A stretch of 64,000 bases of DNA from Escherichia phage BF17: sequence record MW822008.1, one strand, 5' to 3'. Below, one piece after another: positions 29,756-58,466 of this stretch (positions within the stretch are counted from its first letter, which is position 1; the number at the start of each line of letters is the position of its first letter). The notes beneath the pieces are model-generated. The model had not been told where the DNA came from, did no database searches, and worked only from the letters and a program-made list of their open reading frames with translations. The translations under genes and the position numbers were made by a program.

Positions 29756-29767
29756 GAAAAAAATATC

Positions 29768-30001
29768 ATGAAAAATATATTCATTACATTAACAATATTT
29801 GTATCCATTATTCTCTGTGGTTGTGCTCCTAAAGTTGATGAGATGGATGCTGAAATCATCCGTCAAGGTTTAACAAAACTAAATCACCAAGGAACACTAT
29901 ACGCATGTCATACTATGCGTCATGGGCAAGATCTTAATCTCATGTGCAGGAAGATTGTGAATCGCAAACGTCTTAATACTGTTCCGAAGGATGCACAATG
30001 A
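29768..30001 (+). CDS. putative lipoprotein
   Basis: Signal-like MKNIFITLTIFVSIILCGC. The lipobox L-C-G-C is slightly atypical. Confidence 0.55.
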   Translation: MKNIFITLTIFVSIILCGCAPKVDEMDAEIIRQGLTKLNHQGTLYACHTMRHGQDLNLMCRKIVNRKRLNTVPKDAQ

Positions 30002-30168
30002 AAGAAGTAATTGACTACAAATGTAAAAATTGTGGCAAAGATAAGGGTAAGCATTCAGTACAAGGGATGGCTTGCCCGAATCCAGGTCGTGGTAATTTCA
30101 GCGGGTTCAGTACTGAAAAGTCTTACGAACCGGATCATACCAAACCTGTAATGGGTTATAAATTATGA
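29998..30168 (+). CDS. small Cys-containing protein (56 aa, below the track cutoff)
   Basis: My own translation: MKEVIDYKCKNCGKDKGKHSVQGMACPNPGRG... ATGA overlaps at both ends. Confidence 0.5.
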   Translation: MKEVIDYKCKNCGKDKGKHSVQGMACPNPGRGNFSGFSTEKSYEPDHTKPVMGYKL

Positions 30169-32779: not shown

Positions 32780-32954
32780 AATCTTCAAAAAAGAATACGA
32801 TGGTGAAAGTCTCTATGATATTCAAAGAGACGTACATGAAGCATTCGATTCAAGATTTAACCCATTAGCTGAACAAATCCCACAAGATGAGTTTGGTTTT
32901 CAGGAAGGCACTTTCACAGTGACTATTACATGGAGTCCAGATGAGACTAGCTAA
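32769..32954 (+). CDS. hypothetical small protein
   Basis: ORF track. Confidence 0.5.
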   Translation: MQNEIFKKEYDGESLYDIQRDVHEAFDSRFNPLAEQIPQDEFGFQEGTFTVTITWSPDETS

Positions 32955-33057
32955 ACTTGTCATAGGTTGTAGTGCACTTGCTGCATATATGCTTTTTTCC
33001 GCACCAACCAATGTATTACTGTTAATTTGGGCAGTTGTTATATTAGCAGTACTTTAA
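32941..33057 (+). CDS. very small hydrophobic peptide (38 aa)
   Basis: My own translation: MRLAKLVIGCSALAAYMLFSAPTNVLLLIWAVVILAVL. It ends at the terminator at 33057. Confidence 0.4.
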   Translation: MRLAKLVIGCSALAAYMLFSAPTNVLLLIWAVVILAVL

Positions 33058-33079
33058 AGCACCCTAGTGGTGCTTTTTC
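33057..33079 (+). terminator. intrinsic terminator
   Basis: AAGCACC-CTAGT-GGTGCTT with a T run. Confidence 0.7.
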
Positions 33080-33113
33080 TATTTGTGCAAATAAAAACCA
33101 ATGTGACTTTTCC

Positions 33114-33127
33114 TTGATATAGGTCAA
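33114..33127 (+). promoter_or_regulatory. FNR/CRP-family box TTGAT-ATAG-GTCAA
   Basis: Matches 9 of 10 positions of TTGAT-N4-ATCAA. Centred at 33120.5, which is 41.5 bp upstream of the start predicted from the -10 at 33150..33155. Confidence 0.55.
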
Positions 33128-33149
33128 GAGAAATAACCTGTTCTGACGC

Positions 33150-33155
33150 TATAAT
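33150..33155 (+). promoter_or_regulatory. -10 hexamer TATAAT of the nrdD promoter (no good -35)
   Basis: Perfect TATAAT. The -35 region is poor, as expected for an activator-dependent class II promoter. Confidence 0.5.
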
Positions 33156-35881: not shown

Positions 35882-38578
35882 ATGTCAAAGAAAATATATG
35901 GTGGCTTAGATGTCACACATAATGTGACAGTTAATGGTAAAAGAACAATTCAAGGAATAAATGAACAAGTTTTTGATTCCAACGGTAACTTGGAATTAGA
36001 TACTTATTCCAGAGATGAAGTACTAGATATAGTAAGTATGATGCCAATCTCCCATTATGGTTCACAAAACTATCTACCTGCGGGTGTTTCTGGGGATTTC
36101 AATGGTGCATCAGAAAACCAGTCACAACGTAGAAATAAAATTTTATTAGAAAACGATGGTACACTAGTACTTTTACGTAGTGGGACAAACGGTAGTGTTG
36201 AGGGATTATTTTATTCATATTTGGCTAACGCATTATCAGTTGATGACATGAGCCGTACAATTAACACTAGTCGTCAATACAAGCCTGGGTTTTTTGGTTC
36301 AAATAGAGTTGCGATTGGTTTATACAATACTGATCCAAATATTTTACTCGGTAGATATATTGATACTTCTAACAGTACTAATGGTTTGTTCATATCAATT
36401 ACCAATGGTACATTAGATGATAAATTGCATACTGGTTTTTTCGTTAACCAAGCAGATATATCACCTGAAGGTGGTATTGAATATGCTATGATGGCAGAAG
36501 ATGGTTCTATATATGTTTTTAACGTACTTAATGAAAATAACCAACTACAATTAGTTGTTGTAAAAGTTGTTTATAATATAAGCAATGGTACTTATACTGC
36601 AACTCGAATTACTGGATGGACTACTAAAACATTTTATAACACGACATATTCTGCACAAAATAATATGGTTATTACTAATCAGGTAACATCAACAAATATT
36701 GCTGATAAACCTTATGTGTATGTTCCACAAAATCTACGTGGTATTGGGATTTACATGACATCAATTGATTTATATGTTGCACAGCAGCCAGGAACGCAGA
36801 ATTTCCGCTTTAGAATGAACGGGGACGCTTGGTTTACAATGGCAACATATAATACACGTCCACAGCATAGTTACAGTTTTGTGTTCAATATGAGTACTAA
36901 ACAATGTACATTAGATGCGGGTAACGATATTGGTTCATATCAAGCACCATTAGTTATAACTAATACTGGTTCGGCATTAGTTCCTACTGGTAACGTTTTA
37001 AATAACGATCCATTGTATAACCATGCAAATGCAAGAAACATTTATAGTTCATATTTTTATTTGAATTCTGGTGAAGCTTTTTGTACTACATGTCCAAACT
37101 TAGCAGAACCATTACTTATGCAAAAAGCTAAGTTTCCTATTCAAATAGTTTATAGTATGCTGAATGTCCGTGCTGTACTTTCTACTGACTTCAAAGGTGG
37201 TATAGTTCGCCCGTCTTTTGGTTCAGCGGTTGGTTCATTTATTAATGGTGTAGAATTACTACCAGATAACAGTACTAAACAATATTCACGTGCATCAGGT
37301 AGTGGTGGATTTAGACCATCATATGCAGTTCATAAAAGTACTCCTAATTTTACATTTAAATCATTATCTTTAGGAACAATACAAGGTTATGAACCTACAG
37401 TTGAACGTGCTAATGTTGATGATAATGCAAATAATAGAATTTTTATTAGTAGTATTTCTGGGTCAACTGTCACAACCAATGGTGGTATTTTTATGGTTGG
37501 GCAACGTTATTCACAATCATTATCCTATGATAAAAACTTAAATGGCACAGGAATTATAAGCGTTACACAATCAGTACTGGACAATTTTAGAAATACTGAA
37601 TATGCCAAAGTTCTAAGTGATTGGAATTTATCAGCACAAGCATACCGTGATATGACACTATTTGTTCCACAACAAACAGACATTCCAGCTTTTGTTATGT
37701 TGAGTACAATTACTAATGATTATAGAAACTATATTAGAATTGCTGAAGTTAATGTCAATACTAGAGTTGGTAATATTACATCTATTACATTTAAGCGTTT
37801 AGTACTTGAGAATACGTATGGTGATAACTTTACACCAACTGGGAATGGTTCGATTGCATCTTCTTCTGTTGGTTTGACCATATATGATGGTGGTTCATTC
37901 TACTTCATTGGTGGTTCTGACCCATTATCACATCCAACAATAGGTAATACTGCAACTCATCAATTTAGAGCATATGTAACTAAATCAACTGCACAATTTA
38001 CAAGTTTTATAATTACTGGATCTCATGCCAGTTATGAACAAGGAAGTCAACCAGCAGCATTACCTGGTATTGGTTTTGGAATTTTTGAACCAATGGATTA
38101 CTCAAATAAAATGACATTCAAAAAATATGGAACAACGATTGCAGACTATAATAACTGGACTGCACAAGGTAGCCCAATTAACGTAGTATCCCAGGACGTT
38201 GCTCAAGGGTTTATTGTATATTTTACAGAGGAAACACCAGTTATTCTTTCAGGTAAGTCATTTTCACTACCAGTTTCAAATATTGATTTGAGAACTATTA
38301 AGTCTAATCCAGCAAATACAACATTTTATGTATATGTTAAATTGGAACAAGGATTGGCAAACTATTACATAACTACTGATGTTATTTCTGAAACAGGGAC
38401 AACTGCATATAATATTTTTTGGATAGGTACAATTCAAACTAATGCAATTCAAATCGAAACAATTAATATACAAAAACGTTCCCGTTTAGATATATTTGGT
38501 GCTTCACTTGAATCAGCAGGTTCATCGTTCCCAGTTAGCTACGGTCTACCATCACAAACAGGAACCATAAACTGGTAA
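35882..38578 (+). CDS. tail fibre protein (long paralog 1)
   Basis: 898 aa, rich in Gly/Ser/Thr/Asn. Shares N-terminal, sub-terminal and C-terminal modules with 38590 and 39194. Confidence 0.7.
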   Translation: MSKKIYGGLDVTHNVTVNGKRTIQGINEQVFDSNGNLELDTYSRDEVLDIVSMMPISHYGSQNYLPAGVSGDFNGASENQSQRRNKILLENDGTLVLLRSGTNGSVEGLFYSYLANALSVDDMSRTINTSRQYKPGFFGSNRVAIGLYNTDPNILLGRYIDTSNSTNGLFISITNGTLDDKLHTGFFVNQADISPEGGIEYAMMAEDGSIYVFNVLNENNQLQLVVVKVVYNISNGTYTATRITGWTTKTFYNTTYSAQNNMVITNQVTSTNIADKPYVYVPQNLRGIGIYMTSIDLYVAQQPGTQNFRFRMNGDAWFTMATYNTRPQHSYSFVFNMSTKQCTLDAGNDIGSYQAPLVITNTGSALVPTGNVLNNDPLYNHANARNIYSSYFYLNSGEAFCTTCPNLAEPLLMQKAKFPIQIVYSMLNVRAVLSTDFKGGIVRPSFGSAVGSFINGVELLPDNSTKQYSRASGSGGFRPSYAVHKSTPNFTFKSLSLGTIQGYEPTVERANVDDNANNRIFISSISGSTVTTNGGIFMVGQRYSQSLSYDKNLNGTGIISVTQSVLDNFRNTEYAKVLSDWNLSAQAYRDMTLFVPQQTDIPAFVMLSTITNDYRNYIRIAEVNVNTRVGNITSITFKRLVLENTYGDNFTPTGNGSIASSSVGLTIYDGGSFYFIGGSDPLSHPTIGNTATHQFRAYVTKSTAQFTSFIITGSHASYEQGSQPAALPGIGFGIFEPMDYSNKMTFKKYGTTIADYNNWTAQGSPINVVSQDVAQGFIVYFTEETPVILSGKSFSLPVSNIDLRTIKSNPANTTFYVYVKLEQGLANYYITTDVISETGTTAYNIFWIGTIQTNAIQIETINIQKRSRLDIFGASLESAGSSFPVSYGLPSQTGTINW

Positions 38579-49643: not shown

Positions 49644-49948
49644 AAAAATTATTAGTTCCAATGATTTCTTTTTTAATTATAAGTGGGTGTGCCGAGCAAG
49701 TAAAACTACAATCCCCCGCACCAATTAAACAAGAAATTCTGTTAGAAAGATGTGATGATGATACACCTCTACCACAAAAAATTATGATTGACAAAAATGG
49801 TTTTAAAGGTTATGATGGTGCAGAAATTCTTAAAGTACTTACTCGTTGGGATGCAGTCTACAATGAATGTGCTTTAAAACACGACGCATTGATTAAAACT
49901 ATTCGTGATTTACAAGGTAAAGATATTAAAATCAATATCAAGGAATAA
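49640..49948 (+). CDS. o-spanin (outer-membrane lipoprotein)
   Basis: Signal plus lipobox MKKLLVPMISFLIISGC. Confidence 0.6.
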   Translation: MKKLLVPMISFLIISGCAEQVKLQSPAPIKQEILLERCDDDTPLPQKIMIDKNGFKGYDGAEILKVLTRWDAVYNECALKHDALIKTIRDLQGKDIKINIKE

Positions 49949-49949
49949 A

Positions 49950-50561
49950 ATGAACAAATATCATGTTTACTATACGACAAAATTATCACTTCTTGAAGAA
50001 TTAAATCAACGAAGTACTAAGATGAAACGCTACACTTTAAATGGTATTACTTTTCGATATTTCCCACAAAAAGTTCTTACTTTTGTTAAGAATCCAAAAT
50101 GCGTGGCATGTGGGATTGAAGCTACTGAAGTACGCATTGAACGTTCATTATGTTCTGATCCAGTATATGGTAAACCACATTTAAATGTATATGCTGTATG
50201 TGGTCTTTATGAAGTTTTAATGACAGTTGACCATAATCATCTGGCATCTAAGGGTGGACCTGATTTAGAGTCAAACTTTAATACTATGTGCTCCAGATGT
50301 AATCAACTACGTTCGAATAAAACTGAAACAGTTGATGAGTTTCTTGAGAAAGTTAAAGGTCGTAATCTTCTCCAAGAACATATGAATAATTTCTTTAATG
50401 TACAAAAAAAGAAAAATAACATTGACAAGTCGAAACTACTAGAAGAACGTAGGTTACGTCAAGAATTATGGGAAACCGATCATCTATGGCATGTTCGAGA
50501 GTTTGGTCGTCATATGAAAGCTTTGAAAAAAGAACAGAAGAAATTGAATAAACATGATTGA
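49950..50561 (+). CDS. free-standing HNH endonuclease
   Basis: Contains VDHNHLASKGGPDLESNFNTMCSRCNQLRSNK (HNH with Cys pairs). ATG at 49950 follows AAGGA. Confidence 0.75.
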   Translation: MNKYHVYYTTKLSLLEELNQRSTKMKRYTLNGITFRYFPQKVLTFVKNPKCVACGIEATEVRIERSLCSDPVYGKPHLNVYAVCGLYEVLMTVDHNHLASKGGPDLESNFNTMCSRCNQLRSNKTETVDEFLEKVKGRNLLQEHMNNFFNVQKKKNNIDKSKLLEERRLRQELWETDHLWHVREFGRHMKALKKEQKKLNKHD

Positions 50562-50971: not shown

Positions 50972-51370
50972 ATGCTTAAAGAATTAGATTTTTCAAACTT
51001 AGAAATTATCAGTGCTGTAAAAAACATTTCCGATATGGGAGATGAGAAAGCAGTTCTTGTTACTATTACTTTTGTAAAAGAAAAAGATAGCTATAGCCAT
51101 TTAACTGGCATTGAAGAACTAATTCATAAAACCAATCTTGAGAATGATGGTAAACTCATCAAGCTTCAGGCTTCCTATACGCAAAAAACGTCAAATTTTA
51201 TAGACCTAAATAATGTAGTCAAGGTGGTATACAATCATCCTGAACACACATATAGGAACACGACAAGAAATGAAAATGTTGCTAACGATTCGAATATTAT
51301 CGAAGATGTTGAATTCATAAACACAATTTTTGATCGTTGTTCTAAGGATTTAAAAAAAGTATACATGTAA
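50972..51370 (+). CDS. hypothetical protein
   Basis: ATG at 50972, immediately after the upstream stop. Confidence 0.55.
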   Translation: MLKELDFSNLEIISAVKNISDMGDEKAVLVTITFVKEKDSYSHLTGIEELIHKTNLENDGKLIKLQASYTQKTSNFIDLNNVVKVVYNHPEHTYRNTTRNENVANDSNIIEDVEFINTIFDRCSKDLKKVYM

Positions 51371-51399
51371 TGGGACATTATATGTTCCAATGATATAAT
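51371..51399 (+). promoter_or_regulatory. promoter: TGGGAC-N17-TATAAT with a TG extension, driving the noncoding locus
   Basis: TGGGACATTATATGTTCCAATGATATAAT is nearly the same as the element at 26149. Confidence 0.6.
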
Positions 51400-51677
51400 G
51401 TATATAGAAAATGACAACGGACATTGAAAAATGGACACTGAGAACCTACTTCTCTTGAAAATGTAAAGGATAGATGAGCTTTACCGTTGTAGCGAACAGC
51501 AGAAGAAACCTGTTAGAGTACTGGCATTCAAACAAACACGATGTAAGACCACGAATCACGGCGACACGGCTGTATAAAGAACTCCGATAAGCATACAGAG
51601 AGTTCCTAGATAGATGTATAAGGTTCGCACCTTACCAGATTTGCTAAGGGAGTTCAAGAATAGCGGACGCAATTTTT

Positions 51678-51706
51678 ACAAGAAAGTTGCGTCCAAAATT
51701 TGAGAA
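51678..51706 (+). repeat. internal repeat module A of the noncoding locus
   Basis: ACAAGAAAG-TTGC-GTCCAAAATTTGAGAA. Matches 27 of 29 positions of 51830..51858. Confidence 0.85.
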
Positions 51707-51829
51707 CAAGTACTACTTTGATCGAATAGAGTTAGTACTGAGTGCTGTTGATGAAAAGACCAGCGACCGTTGCATATGACTGCGATAGAGAGAAACCGAG
51801 CAACCCGCTTTCGCTCTCTAAATTTTGGT

Positions 51830-51858
51830 ACAAGAAAGATCCGTCCAAAATTTGAGAA
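51830..51858 (+). repeat. internal repeat module B of the noncoding locus
   Basis: ACAAGAAAG-ATCC-GTCCAAAATTTGAGAA. Confidence 0.85.
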
Positions 51859-51894
51859 ATTCGCAATTCGATAATATCCGATGCCATCATCGTC

Positions 51895-51920
51895 AAGAGA
51901 GACTTAATTGTCTCTTTTTT
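51895..51920 (+). terminator. intrinsic terminator closing the noncoding locus
   Basis: AAGAGAGAC-TTAATT-GTCTCTTTT with a T run to 51920. Confidence 0.65.
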
Positions 51921-52060
51921 ATTACCTTCATTCCCCTGCGGGGGGATGTAATAGTCCTCAACAAATCCCGTCAAGTTTTTAAAGTACATTATCATTTTCA
52001 GAAGGAACTAGTTTACGAAGTAAACGCAGTGACTTCTTGAGTTACGAGAGAACGAAGTGA

Positions 52061-52489
52061 ATGAGTAACACAACGAAAATATCCGATAAATCCGAATTAA
52101 CACAAATGTTATTCAAAGAATATTTTGAGTTTCAGATAAAAGACGAACATCAATTACCACAGCAATATTTGAAAAGAATTAAAGATCCGTCAGTAATTAC
52201 TAAAGAAACTAATTTTTATAATAGTATTTTGGATTTCGTTAAATCAGTTCATACAACAAGACCTATTGTAGTTTTGTTTTTTGATAAATCTATTCCTTTA
52301 GTAGTTCCTGAAAATGTATTTTTTATTTCAGAAACTGATTTAAATAATCAAAGTACTGTAAGTAGATTAAGAAATTGCTTACTTGTAGTATGTGATTCTT
52401 CTTTGTATAATAACAGAATACTATGGGATAGAAGTAAACGCAATGCAGTTTCGGAAATGAATCCTGAAATTACCTTTATTATTAACTAA
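52061..52489 (+). CDS. hypothetical protein
   Basis: ORF track. Weak RBS. Confidence 0.55.
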   Translation: MSNTTKISDKSELTQMLFKEYFEFQIKDEHQLPQQYLKRIKDPSVITKETNFYNSILDFVKSVHTTRPIVVLFFDKSIPLVVPENVFFISETDLNNQSTVSRLRNCLLVVCDSSLYNNRILWDRSKRNAVSEMNPEITFIIN

Positions 52490-58109: not shown

Positions 58110-58120
58110 AAGGAAAATAT

Positions 58121-58252
58121 ATGAATGGACTAAAAAAGTTTGGTAAAGATTTTCTAAAGTGCATCCGTTATACATACGATGCCAACCCTGAAATGACTGC
58201 CATCGTGGGTGTGTTTATTACACTCGTTGTATTAAGCTTTATTGTGGTGTAA
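58121..58252 (+). CDS. small tail-anchored membrane peptide (43 aa)
   Basis: My own translation: MNGLKKFGKDFLKCIRYTYDANPEMTAIVGVFITLVVLSFIVV. AAGGAAA upstream. Confidence 0.5.
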   Translation: MNGLKKFGKDFLKCIRYTYDANPEMTAIVGVFITLVVLSFIVV

Positions 58253-58255
58253 AAT

Positions 58256-58459
58256 ATGATTGAAATTAATGCTGATGTATATTGTAGTGCATCACCCAAC
58301 TACTTCATTTATGCACTAAGTACATTTGGGGAAACTGAAGGTGAAACTTTTGTTTTAGTAGATAATACTACATGGTACAAAACAAGTAATAAAATTCCGA
58401 AAGATGTTTTGGAAACTTATGTTCGTATTGAAAATAAAAACATATATGTAAATTTATAG
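58256..58459 (+). CDS. hypothetical small protein
   Basis: ORF track. Confidence 0.55.
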   Translation: MIEINADVYCSASPNYFIYALSTFGETEGETFVLVDNTTWYKTSNKIPKDVLETYVRIENKNIYVNL

Positions 58460-58466
58460 GTAAAAT

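Follow-up and report, generated by a model that had tools for sequence, protein, structure and literature searches.

The stretch of DNA analysed here, referred to as the window, consists of 64,000 nucleotides of Escherichia phage BF17 (MW822008.1). The element under study is a non-coding region that extends from position 51371 to about 52060. From 5′ to 3′ on the plus strand, it consists of a promoter, a core of about 490 nucleotides, an intrinsic terminator, and a conserved, partly structured tail of about 140 nucleotides. A large structured phage RNA had been proposed at this place by a first-pass annotation made from the letters of the window; its start at 51371 is retained, while its end at 51946 was too short, as the conserved element reaches about 52060. 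The window comes from an Asteriusvirus jumbo phage. Over 801 bases around the locus, the window is 100% identical to the minus strand of Escherichia phage PBECO4 (NC_027364.1), in which position 38547 corresponds to position 51400 of the window, and 95–99.9% identical to about 30 other Asteriusvirus jumbo phages. As noticed in the first-pass annotation, the locus is richer in G+C (0.40–0.42) than the flanking genes (0.29–0.33). The 515-nucleotide RNA extending from the predicted start around 51406 to the terminator at 51920 has a fold z-score of −4.1.

The non-coding core matches 71 phage records. All are Rak2-like jumbo phages, with 3–5 matching places each and about 70% identity across genera. 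Their hosts belong to nine genera (Escherichia, Klebsiella, Salmonella, Erwinia, Yersinia, Cronobacter, Pectobacterium, Serratia, and Xanthomonas). About 110 more loci came from pattern scans of IMG/VR, metagenomes, and GTDB genomes, and a profile search confirmed 116 places among the loci. The nhmmer profile of the family recovered every copy and matches the window at 51367–51972 (E = 1.7e-112). One IMG/VR pattern match (L056) was found by nhmmer not to be a family member, and three others (L119, L121, and L126, from Spirosoma and Oscillospiraceae) were discarded as chance matches.

Copies were mapped in eight Rak2-like genomes. PBECO4 has exactly four, at about 38.0–38.5, 93.7–94.1, 195.1–195.4, and 305.0–305.3 kb, all on the same strand and each in an unannotated gap of 0.6–0.84 kb. 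Four co-oriented copies at similar map positions are also found in 121Q (at 90, 193, 248, and 327 kb), GAP32, CBB, Yen9-04, and three uncultured genomes of about 360 kb. The 64-kb window has no paralog of its RNA; the other copies are outside this part of the genome. The genes flanking the RNA are not the same from copy to copy or from genus to genus. Copy 1, that of the window, is followed by a gene on the same strand at 52061. Copy 3 lies on the strand opposite to the genes beside it (endonuclease VII and a baseplate-hub operon), and the next gene is convergent. In a tree of the copies, four clades cut across the genera, and the GAP32 copy at the syntenic site has an insertion specific to copy 1. 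The paralogs are therefore older than the genera.

The secondary structure was derived from 101 full-length copies, which were reduced to 57 (less than 96% identical) and aligned. This alignment, A2, is the basis of all structure counts below. Helices were identified by scanning all columns against all others for pairing maintained through sequence change, and were then curated by hand. As controls, partners were slid by 1–3 columns, and 500 shuffles were made. In the resulting model of 95 pairs in 22 helices, 86.3% are paired over the 57 sequences, versus 37–42% with slid partners. The covariation that the first-pass annotation had considered diagnostic in homologous loci is abundant, with 875 double-change cells against 104–161 in the controls, and a covariation score of 0.426 against at most 0.093. 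None of the 500 shuffles reached the real values, and 73 of the 95 pairs have changed on both sides. Application of RNAalifold to the raw MAFFT alignment, of either the whole RNA or the tail, recovered the structure in part only. Since G-U pairs are conserved (for example at columns 470/481 and 547/568), the plus strand is the folding strand. Judging from these comparisons, the sequence is non-coding and its base-pairing is under selection on the plus strand, to which all the features described below belong.

The fold predicted from the alignment is composed of at least 15 helices with two, probably three, loop-to-strand pseudoknots and invariant junction nucleotides. The best-kept helices are P1, P3, P6, Px, Ha/He, Hg, Hd, Hf, Hh, and the terminator stem (helix 22). 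The core, or Part A (51406–51897), ends in the invariant CGUCA(A)G and is supported by the profile match, covariation, the fold z-score, and the lack of a conserved open reading frame (ORF). Its 5′ subdomain (51414–51490), defined by covariation, consists of helix P1 enclosing P1a and P2. P1 (51414–21/51483–90, helix 1) is 94% paired, with seven of eight pairs changed on both sides. It includes the CAACGG/CCGTTG pairing read in the first-pass annotation, which is 96% paired over the 57 relatives; the second CCGTTG offered as a partner (51767–72) is rejected by the comparison. The P1a hairpin (51422–33) is capped by a GNRA loop in 12 of the 57 sequences. P2 (51446–48/51471–73 and 51452–56/51466–70) is 79–89% paired and carries the conserved loop GAAAAUGUA.

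Helix P3 (51496–500/51569–73, helix 6) is 100% paired with three covarying pairs, and P4 (51510–13/51558–61, helix 7) is 99.6% paired and nearly invariant. Inside P3/P4 (51496–51573) lies the variable hairpin P5, which is present in a long form in the window and in a short form or with a UUCG cap in other copies. The hairpin P6 (51579–84/51600–05, helix 8) is 97% paired over the 57 relatives, and all six pairs covary; it corresponds to GAACTC/GAGTTC, which had been correctly read from the letters. The loop of P6 probably contacts the four nucleotides (51643–46) that precede an invariant AAGGGAG, forming the tentative pseudoknot PK3. In a partner-shuffle test, the mean best helix was 4.33 nucleotides, versus 3.31 (maximum 3.70) with shuffled partners, which is weaker support than that for the pseudoknots Hc and Hj described below. 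The hairpin P7 (51619–23/51630–34, helix 10) is only 65% paired in A2 because its length varies; its reading as TAAGGT/ACCTTA is probably right for the window, with the reservation of this variable length. The conserved CUAAGGGAG follows at 51644–52, with a core AAGGGA that is invariant in the 57 sequences.

Two fixed sites of the core accommodate an optional 29-nucleotide module, which may be present at one, both, or neither, each site being closed by a covarying helix (Px or Hh). Px (51652–55/51704–07, helix 11) closes optional module 1 (51652–51707) and is 98% paired, with covariation of all pairs. Hh (51815–18/51854–57) closes optional module 2 (51819–53) and is 92% paired. Module 1 is copy A of the repeat, UACAAnAnAG..CGUCCAAAAUUUG. 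The duplication had been recognized in the first-pass annotation, and the two copies in the window (51671–706 and 51821–58) are 89% identical. The internal pairing of the module (R1) is 54% paired across the family. A folding of the module as an H-type pseudoknot was considered and is unlikely by loop length.

The Ha/He hairpin (51709–51739; 51709–14/51734–39 and 51716–19/51728–31) is 93% paired, with nine of ten pairs covarying. Its loop (51721–27) pairs with 51866–72 to form pseudoknot Hc, which is 99.5% paired and in which each of the seven pairs has changed on both sides. The 3′ pseudoknotted domain (51743–51872) comprises Hg, Hj, Hd, Hf, and Hh, with compensatory changes in each helix. 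Hg (51743–46/51762–65) is 95.6% paired, Hd (51781–85/51861–65) 99.6%, and Hf (51788–92/51808–12) 100%. In pseudoknot Hj, nucleotides 51769–73 pair with the Hf loop (51800–04), crossing Hd and Hf; this helix is 100% paired with compensatory changes. The core terminates with hairpin Hi (51880–83/51891–94, helix 20), which together with the invariant CGUCA(A)G occupies 51880–51897. Hi is mis-registered in A2. When anchored on CGUC, at least four of five pairs form in 51 of the 57 sequences, with variants such as GACGA/UCGUC and GAUGC/GCGUC.

The idea of a large structured phage RNA is thus borne out by the homologues, the covarying fold, and the lack of a conserved ORF, while most of the structural details first drawn were wrong. 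Of the helices compared across the 57 relatives, only the two mentioned under P1 and P6 hold. The helix AACAG/CTGTT is 54% paired and was not kept. TAGAGAG/CTCTCTA is 67% paired; GAGAG pairs instead with CUUUC, and CUCU with GAGA further downstream. The H-type pseudoknot drawn around P6 and the pairing TCTCTTGA/TCAAGAGA (51451–58/51893–900), thought to compete with the terminator, both fall because their helices are not kept in relatives. The partner helix of the former, CTGTAT/ATACAG, is only 45% paired, and the real pseudoknots are elsewhere; the latter is 56.5% paired across the family.

No ORF is conserved in the family. The median length of the longest stretch without a stop is 67 codons, and no frame is common to the copies in spite of about 70% nucleotide identity across genera. 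Insertions and deletions do not come in multiples of three, and single-base ones occur in conserved blocks. The first-pass annotation was therefore right not to consider the listed ORFs of the locus as genes, and the intact protein-coding gene of which the locus could have been a remnant was not found in relatives. Public records place one to six “hypothetical proteins” on the element, differing between phages, for example at 51732–51995 on the minus strand of the window or as gene 516 of 121Q (L001 3431–3586, minus strand). These ORFs annotated over the element are almost certainly false gene calls. Copy 3 of phage UE-S1 is annotated as “repeat_region” and “terminator” only (L129 1474–1631 and 2152–2179).

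The element does not match a known RNA family either. Scanning the whole window with Rfam 15 at gathering thresholds gave no hit. With E values up to 10, the locus yielded only chance hits to models of small nucleolar RNA, microRNA, and the like, and ten other family members had no shared hit at E values up to 1. The covariance models of GOLLD, ROOL, OLE, HEARO, and raiA did not match, nor did those of RNase P RNA, 6S RNA, and SRP RNA, and ARAGORN detected no tRNA or tmRNA gene in the window. The inability of the first-pass annotation to fit the locus to tmRNA, RNase P, 6S, group I introns, or tRNA was thus well founded. A group I intron was specifically rejected, as RF00028 did not match even at E < 10 and the element is intergenic in both phages and islands. 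With more than 400 nucleotides, compensatory helices, conserved junction nucleotides, and no coding capacity, the element corresponds to the descriptive class of large ornate structured non-coding RNAs. No description of it was found in the literature searched; it is absent from the genome papers on CBB, phAPEC6, and UE-S1, and is not described in a survey of about 10,000 viral RNA motifs.

The promoter (51371–51399) was located by a consensus scan. It consists of a −35-like TGGGAC(A) (51371–77) and an extended −10 element TGATATAAT (51391–99). The scan matched GGGACA-16-TATAAT preceded by TG at 51372–51399 with 10 of 12 positions, as a sigma-70-type promoter with an extended −10, and the transcript is predicted to start near 51406. 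Six copies of the motif TGRRAC-N14-TGnTATAAT are present in the window, where 0.29 would be expected, and all are on the plus strand; the five further copies are at 1687, 5573, 9184, 16912, and 63080. Because of this excess, it is taken to be a recurrent promoter type, as first proposed, except that the 17-nucleotide spacing then given is the distance to TATAAT, that to TG being 14. By its sequence, it matches the “divergent RpoD-like” promoter (−35 TGAAACG) of phages CBB and GAP32, which has been described mostly upstream of DNA-synthesis genes (PMC5259590). An equivalent TG(G/A)(G/A)AC...TGnTATAAT is found at the same place before most copies in the alignment. The island copies have a similar TGAAAT/C...TATACT.

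The intrinsic terminator AGAGAC-UUAAUU-GUCUCU with its U run (51898–51920; stem 51898–903/51910–15, T run to 51920) is evident from direct reading, as in the first-pass annotation, and its stem is the final hairpin of the minimum free energy fold. The stem (helix 22) covaries, being 86.7% paired with five of five pairs. A simple terminator scan of the locus did not list it. Among the relatives, 28 of 57 have a hairpin and U-run terminator 5–15 nucleotides past the invariant CGUCA(A)G, and 29 of 57 do not. A different hairpin, G+C-rich and followed by a T6 run, was seen after the −10 box at the very 5′ end of some predicted transcripts (for example TATAAT-GTAT-AGGACGGTACAGTGTATCGTCC-TTTTTT). 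It is found at L041 7990–8060 and in L029, L030, L032, L038, L042, L047, L108, and L116.

The conserved tail, or Part B (51921–52060), was delineated by the family alignment and by a profile match that starts at 51926. It begins with the hairpin CCCC-UGC-GGGG (51933–43), which was already noted in the first-pass annotation and is invariant in 23 of 23 relatives. A second GAUG...CGUC hairpin, identified in the family alignment, follows at 51945–72 and ends in AAAUCCCGUCAAG. The stem of this GAUGA...UCGUC hairpin repeats that of Hi, the last hairpin of the core, and its loop repeats the P2 loop motif GAAAAUGU. Further downstream are an A+U-rich stretch, a hairpin with a conserved loop ACGAAGUGA, and a last hairpin (B3) with a stem that covaries by eye (CAUUC/GAAUG, CAUAC/GUAUG, and CAAUC/GAUUG). 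In the window, the tail is more diverged and reaches up to the next gene, which starts at 52061. The islands retain Part B, and since the gene downstream of it is convergent there, it is not a 5′ untranslated region. It may be part of the same transcript as the core, through read-through of the terminator. Several short motifs are shared by core and tail: AUC-NN-CGUCA(A)G at 51886–97 recurs at 51963–75 with the same hairpin stem, and GAAAAUGU (P2 loop, 51457–65) and ACGAAGUG recur in the tail of most relatives. Despite these repeated motifs, a profile search rejected the derivation of Part B from a duplicated and diverged 5′ part of the core.

Single copies of the RNA are also found just downstream of the integrase in small chromosomal islands of Enterobacteriaceae. 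In Enterobacter chinensis, ppdD-hofB is followed by a large serine recombinase, then by the RNA and an S24/cI-type repressor in convergent orientation; the corresponding succession in Enterobacteriaceae RIT714 is cysQ-ytfJ-ytfL, a tyrosine integrase, and the RNA. Eleven loci that differ in integrase and insertion site have a common core of integrase, RNA, cI, Ner-like protein, 286-residue membrane protein, and LprI. The cargo includes the defence genes Kiwa (KwaB) and PDC-M45 (DuOB). A complete island of about 11 kb lies between ffs and ybaA in E. coli LR-29-1; it has the RNA, a distant homologue of the membrane protein, and a resolvase, with no replication or packaging genes. The islands seem to be an uncharacterised type of mobile element. 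They span Enterobacter, Buttiauxella, Silvania, and E. coli at the sites ytfL, ppdD, and ffs, with interchangeable tyrosine and serine integrases (loci L125 1–8000, L123 1–8000, L063 1–14964, and L127 7750–18650).

As no island protein has a homologue in PBECO4, the RNA is the sole element common to phages and islands. In the tree, the E. coli island copy is the sister of one jumbo-phage clade, and the Enterobacter island copies group with those of a 349-kb metagenomic contig, closest to phage XaC1. These placements imply at least two exchanges between phages and islands. The RNA was found in two of 5,426 complete E. coli genomes and in none of 72,556 plasmids, and searching phage records with an island-type query returned Rak2-like jumbo phages only, with no temperate phage.

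It is nearly certain, in our judgement, that the locus is a functional structured RNA gene. The family of this RNA, which comprises large pseudoknotted RNAs from both jumbo phages and defence islands, is as yet undescribed. That it also acts in trans in a manner dependent on its folded shape is held with a confidence that is only a little better than even. According to this proposal, host RNA polymerase would produce a transcript of about 515 nucleotides from around 51406 to the terminator at 51920, or a longer one by read-through into the tail. The three-dimensional shape of the RNA would be the basis of its function, through binding of a host component, self-assembly, or catalysis, and the RNA would be neither a messenger, an antisense RNA, a leader, nor a DNA site. 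Since no protein is common to both kinds of carrier, its partner would be a host factor, or the RNA would act alone. By analogy, the pseudoknots, invariant junction nucleotides, and optional peripheral modules are suggestive of ribozymes, ribonucleoprotein scaffolds, or GOLLD, ROOL, and OLE, and not of antisense regulators or primers.

Several observations sit poorly with a trans-acting RNA. The searches made found neither RNA sequencing (RNA-seq) for these phages nor a transcript. The four non-coding RNAs defined by RNA-seq in the related phage PA5oct are not homologous, as judged from ncRNA001 and ncRNA002, the two that were compared. About half of the copies lack a 3′ terminator, which is odd for a simple stable-RNA gene, and nine of 57, all of them without 3′ terminator, have a terminator-like hairpin directly after the −10 box. 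Conservation continues past the terminator into the tail, which an RNA gene does not explain. Finally, a DNA function in cis would account no less naturally for four evenly dispersed and co-oriented copies and for the presence in minimal islands devoid of replication genes.

The main rival is accordingly a transcription-primed replication origin with a structured transcript like ColE1 RNA II or that of T4 oriF/oriG, already mentioned in the first-pass annotation. The transcript would stay hybridised near its 3′ end, at the G6 run followed by the A+T-rich stretch, and prime the leading strand. The four copies would be the origins of the phage, and the island copy would permit replication by an infecting jumbo phage (satellite) or titrate the replication factors of that phage (decoy). 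Four dispersed co-oriented copies per genome of about 350 kb, in eight genomes, are in agreement with this idea, as is the conserved CCCC/GGGGGG hairpin with an A+T-rich stretch past the 3′ end of the RNA. So are the complete E. coli island that has the RNA and no replication gene, the RNA being the sole element common to both carriers, and the promoter class reported mainly upstream of DNA-synthesis genes in CBB (PMC5259590). A promoter and a structured RNA of about 0.5 kb are present, at the end of which DNA synthesis would have to start. T4 relatives also use several promoter-dependent origins. Against an origin, those of T4 lack homology with each other, and a strong intrinsic terminator stands between the RNA and the putative origin in half of the copies. 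The element is in none of the plasmids searched, and no promoter for an antisense RNA like RNA I was found over the 5′ end; the only promoter-like sites of the minus strand (51417→51390 and 51404→51377) are directed away from the RNA. Primer RNAs are not known to have multiple pseudoknots and invariant junctions of this kind, and such an intricate fold would be unprecedented for a primer. An origin is considered unlikely.

Also rather unlikely, though to be kept in mind, is a self-processing or catalytic RNA of a new ribozyme class, in which the fold would form an active site and the repeated AUC-NN-CGUCA(A)G (51886–97 and 51963–75) would be processing sites that set the 3′ end where the terminator is absent. 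The size, pseudoknots, and invariant single-stranded nucleotides are as in large ribozymes, an invariant CGUCA closes the core and reappears in the tail along with its stem, and copies without terminator still need a defined end. This argument is one of resemblance only: the sequence gives no sign of cleavage, no Rfam ribozyme model is similar, and the element lies between genes and is hence not an intron. A cis-acting leader, either a giant riboswitch-like sensor or a processive antitermination signal like the HK022 put RNA, would control read-through of the terminator towards the tail and the genes beyond it. The succession of promoter, structured domain, intrinsic terminator, and conserved downstream sequence is the classical layout of an attenuator, and copy 1 does precede a gene on the same strand. 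A leader is nevertheless quite improbable because the terminator is optional (missing in 29 of 57 copies), no conserved alternative pairing with it was found (the 51451–58/51893–900 candidate being the one rejected above), and copy 3 and the island copies are followed by a convergent gene (cI in the islands); the neighbouring genes also vary among copies and genera. Lastly, a decayed protein gene, or repeated DNA without function at the RNA level, would account for the “hypothetical proteins” of several GenBank records and for the “repeat_region” label in UE-S1. It can hardly be reconciled with hundreds of compensatory double changes by which pairing is preserved, strand-specific G-U pairs among them, with the conservation of promoter and terminator, or with the absence of a common frame and the insertions and deletions that are not in threes at about 70% identity.

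GOLLD and ROOL (RF01998 and RF03087) are among the known RNAs closest to the present one. Likewise found by comparative analysis, they are pseudoknotted non-coding RNAs of about 0.5–0.8 kb with many helices and unknown function, which form independent transcription units in phages or prophage-like carriers. Their hosts are Lactobacillales and rumen or lake bacteria, whereas the present RNA is found in jumbo myophages infecting Enterobacteria and in islands of Enterobacteriaceae. It also differs by the lack of tRNA neighbours (none in the window), the four divergent paralogs per genome, and the failure of the covariance models to match. GOLLD and ROOL form homo-oligomeric cages, and an RNA-only homo-oligomeric assembly has also been reported for OLE (PMC12286853). 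OLE (RF01071) is similarly ornate, with about 600 nucleotides and highly conserved single-stranded positions, and works as a ribonucleoprotein with partners. It differs in being chromosomal, single-copy, found in Bacillota, and linked to oapA/B/C, while the carriers of the present RNA have no linked protein gene in common and the OLE model does not match.

ColE1 RNA II and T4 oriF/oriG share with the present element a promoter-driven RNA of about 0.5 kb, the importance of folding (RNA II), the multiplicity of promoter-dependent origins (T4-type), and a G-rich element near the 3′ end. They differ in that the element has no antisense RNA I partner, no match in plasmids, a terminator preceding the putative origin, and a fold far more intricate and conserved, and in that T4 origins are not paralogous. 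The related jumbo phage PA5oct has four ORF-free loci of long non-coding RNA defined by RNA-seq, of 236–619 nucleotides, two of which amount to 2–5% of phage reads (PMC7318152). Their number per phage is thus the same, and no structure has been proposed for them. Comparison of the family profile by nhmmer --max with the PA5oct region containing ncRNA001 and ncRNA002 gave nothing; ncRNA003 and ncRNA004 were outside this comparison. Group I introns of T4-like phages are also phage-borne, pseudoknotted, and several hundred nucleotides long, with peripheral hairpins capped by GNRA, but the present element is located between genes with its own promoter and terminator, has no exons, and is free-standing in islands too. 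The HK022 put RNA is likewise a promoter-proximal structured phage RNA followed by a terminator. It has about 70 nucleotides in two hairpins, whereas the present element can lack its terminator and, in some copies, is not followed by co-oriented genes.

Complex conserved large RNAs are rare, and nearly all those that are understood are fundamental: the ribosome, RNase P, introns, and tmRNA. The orphans GOLLD, ROOL, OLE, and raiA are under active study, and the present RNA adds to this small class of large ornate RNAs of unknown function. It is distinguished by four ancient paralogs per genome, co-oriented and dispersed, and by the occurrence of the same RNA beside the integrase of defence islands. 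Taken together, they suggest that the RNA has a part in phage-host conflict or in the replication of jumbo phages. It is conceivable, if doubtful, that the RNA is the physical link in a conflict between jumbo phages and islands, as a replication or packaging RNA acting in cis or in trans and captured by islands at least twice, or that it represents a new class of large ribozymes. In such a conflict, the four copies may be four origins, or the four paralogs may build a hetero-oligomeric RNA machine. The islands would then be amplified or mobilised by the infecting jumbo phage, as the first satellites of jumbo phages, or would sabotage it with an RNA decoy beside defence genes. Experiments are feasible, as the family is present in tractable hosts (E. 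coli, Salmonella, and Klebsiella) and in cultured phages (PBECO4, 121Q, phAPEC6, GAP32, and CBB). A practical consequence concerns the dozens of GenBank records that annotate false “hypothetical proteins” at the RNA loci.

The first-pass annotation had described the locus as the only long ORF-free stretch. Three more stretches of 357–409 nucleotides without an ORF of at least 80 residues on either strand are present in the window (29756–30164, 32780–33153, and 58110–58466), none of which matched Rfam; 51371–52060 is nevertheless the longest gap, once a spurious 87-residue minus-strand ORF is removed. About 0.8 kb upstream of the locus, an ORF on the plus strand (49905–50561) encodes an HNH homing endonuclease (121Q gene 513). 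No link with the RNA was seen, and the neighbours of the other copies differ from this context. The gene that follows the RNA in PBECO4 (52061–52489 of the window) is unrelated to that which follows the clade-A copies in GAP32-like phages (L028, L020, L033, and L110). The latter gene is located about 250–300 nucleotides past the RNA core, and its product starts with MIDKENRAIGSLVGLAVGDALGTTLEF, a signature resembling that of ADP-ribosylglycohydrolases.

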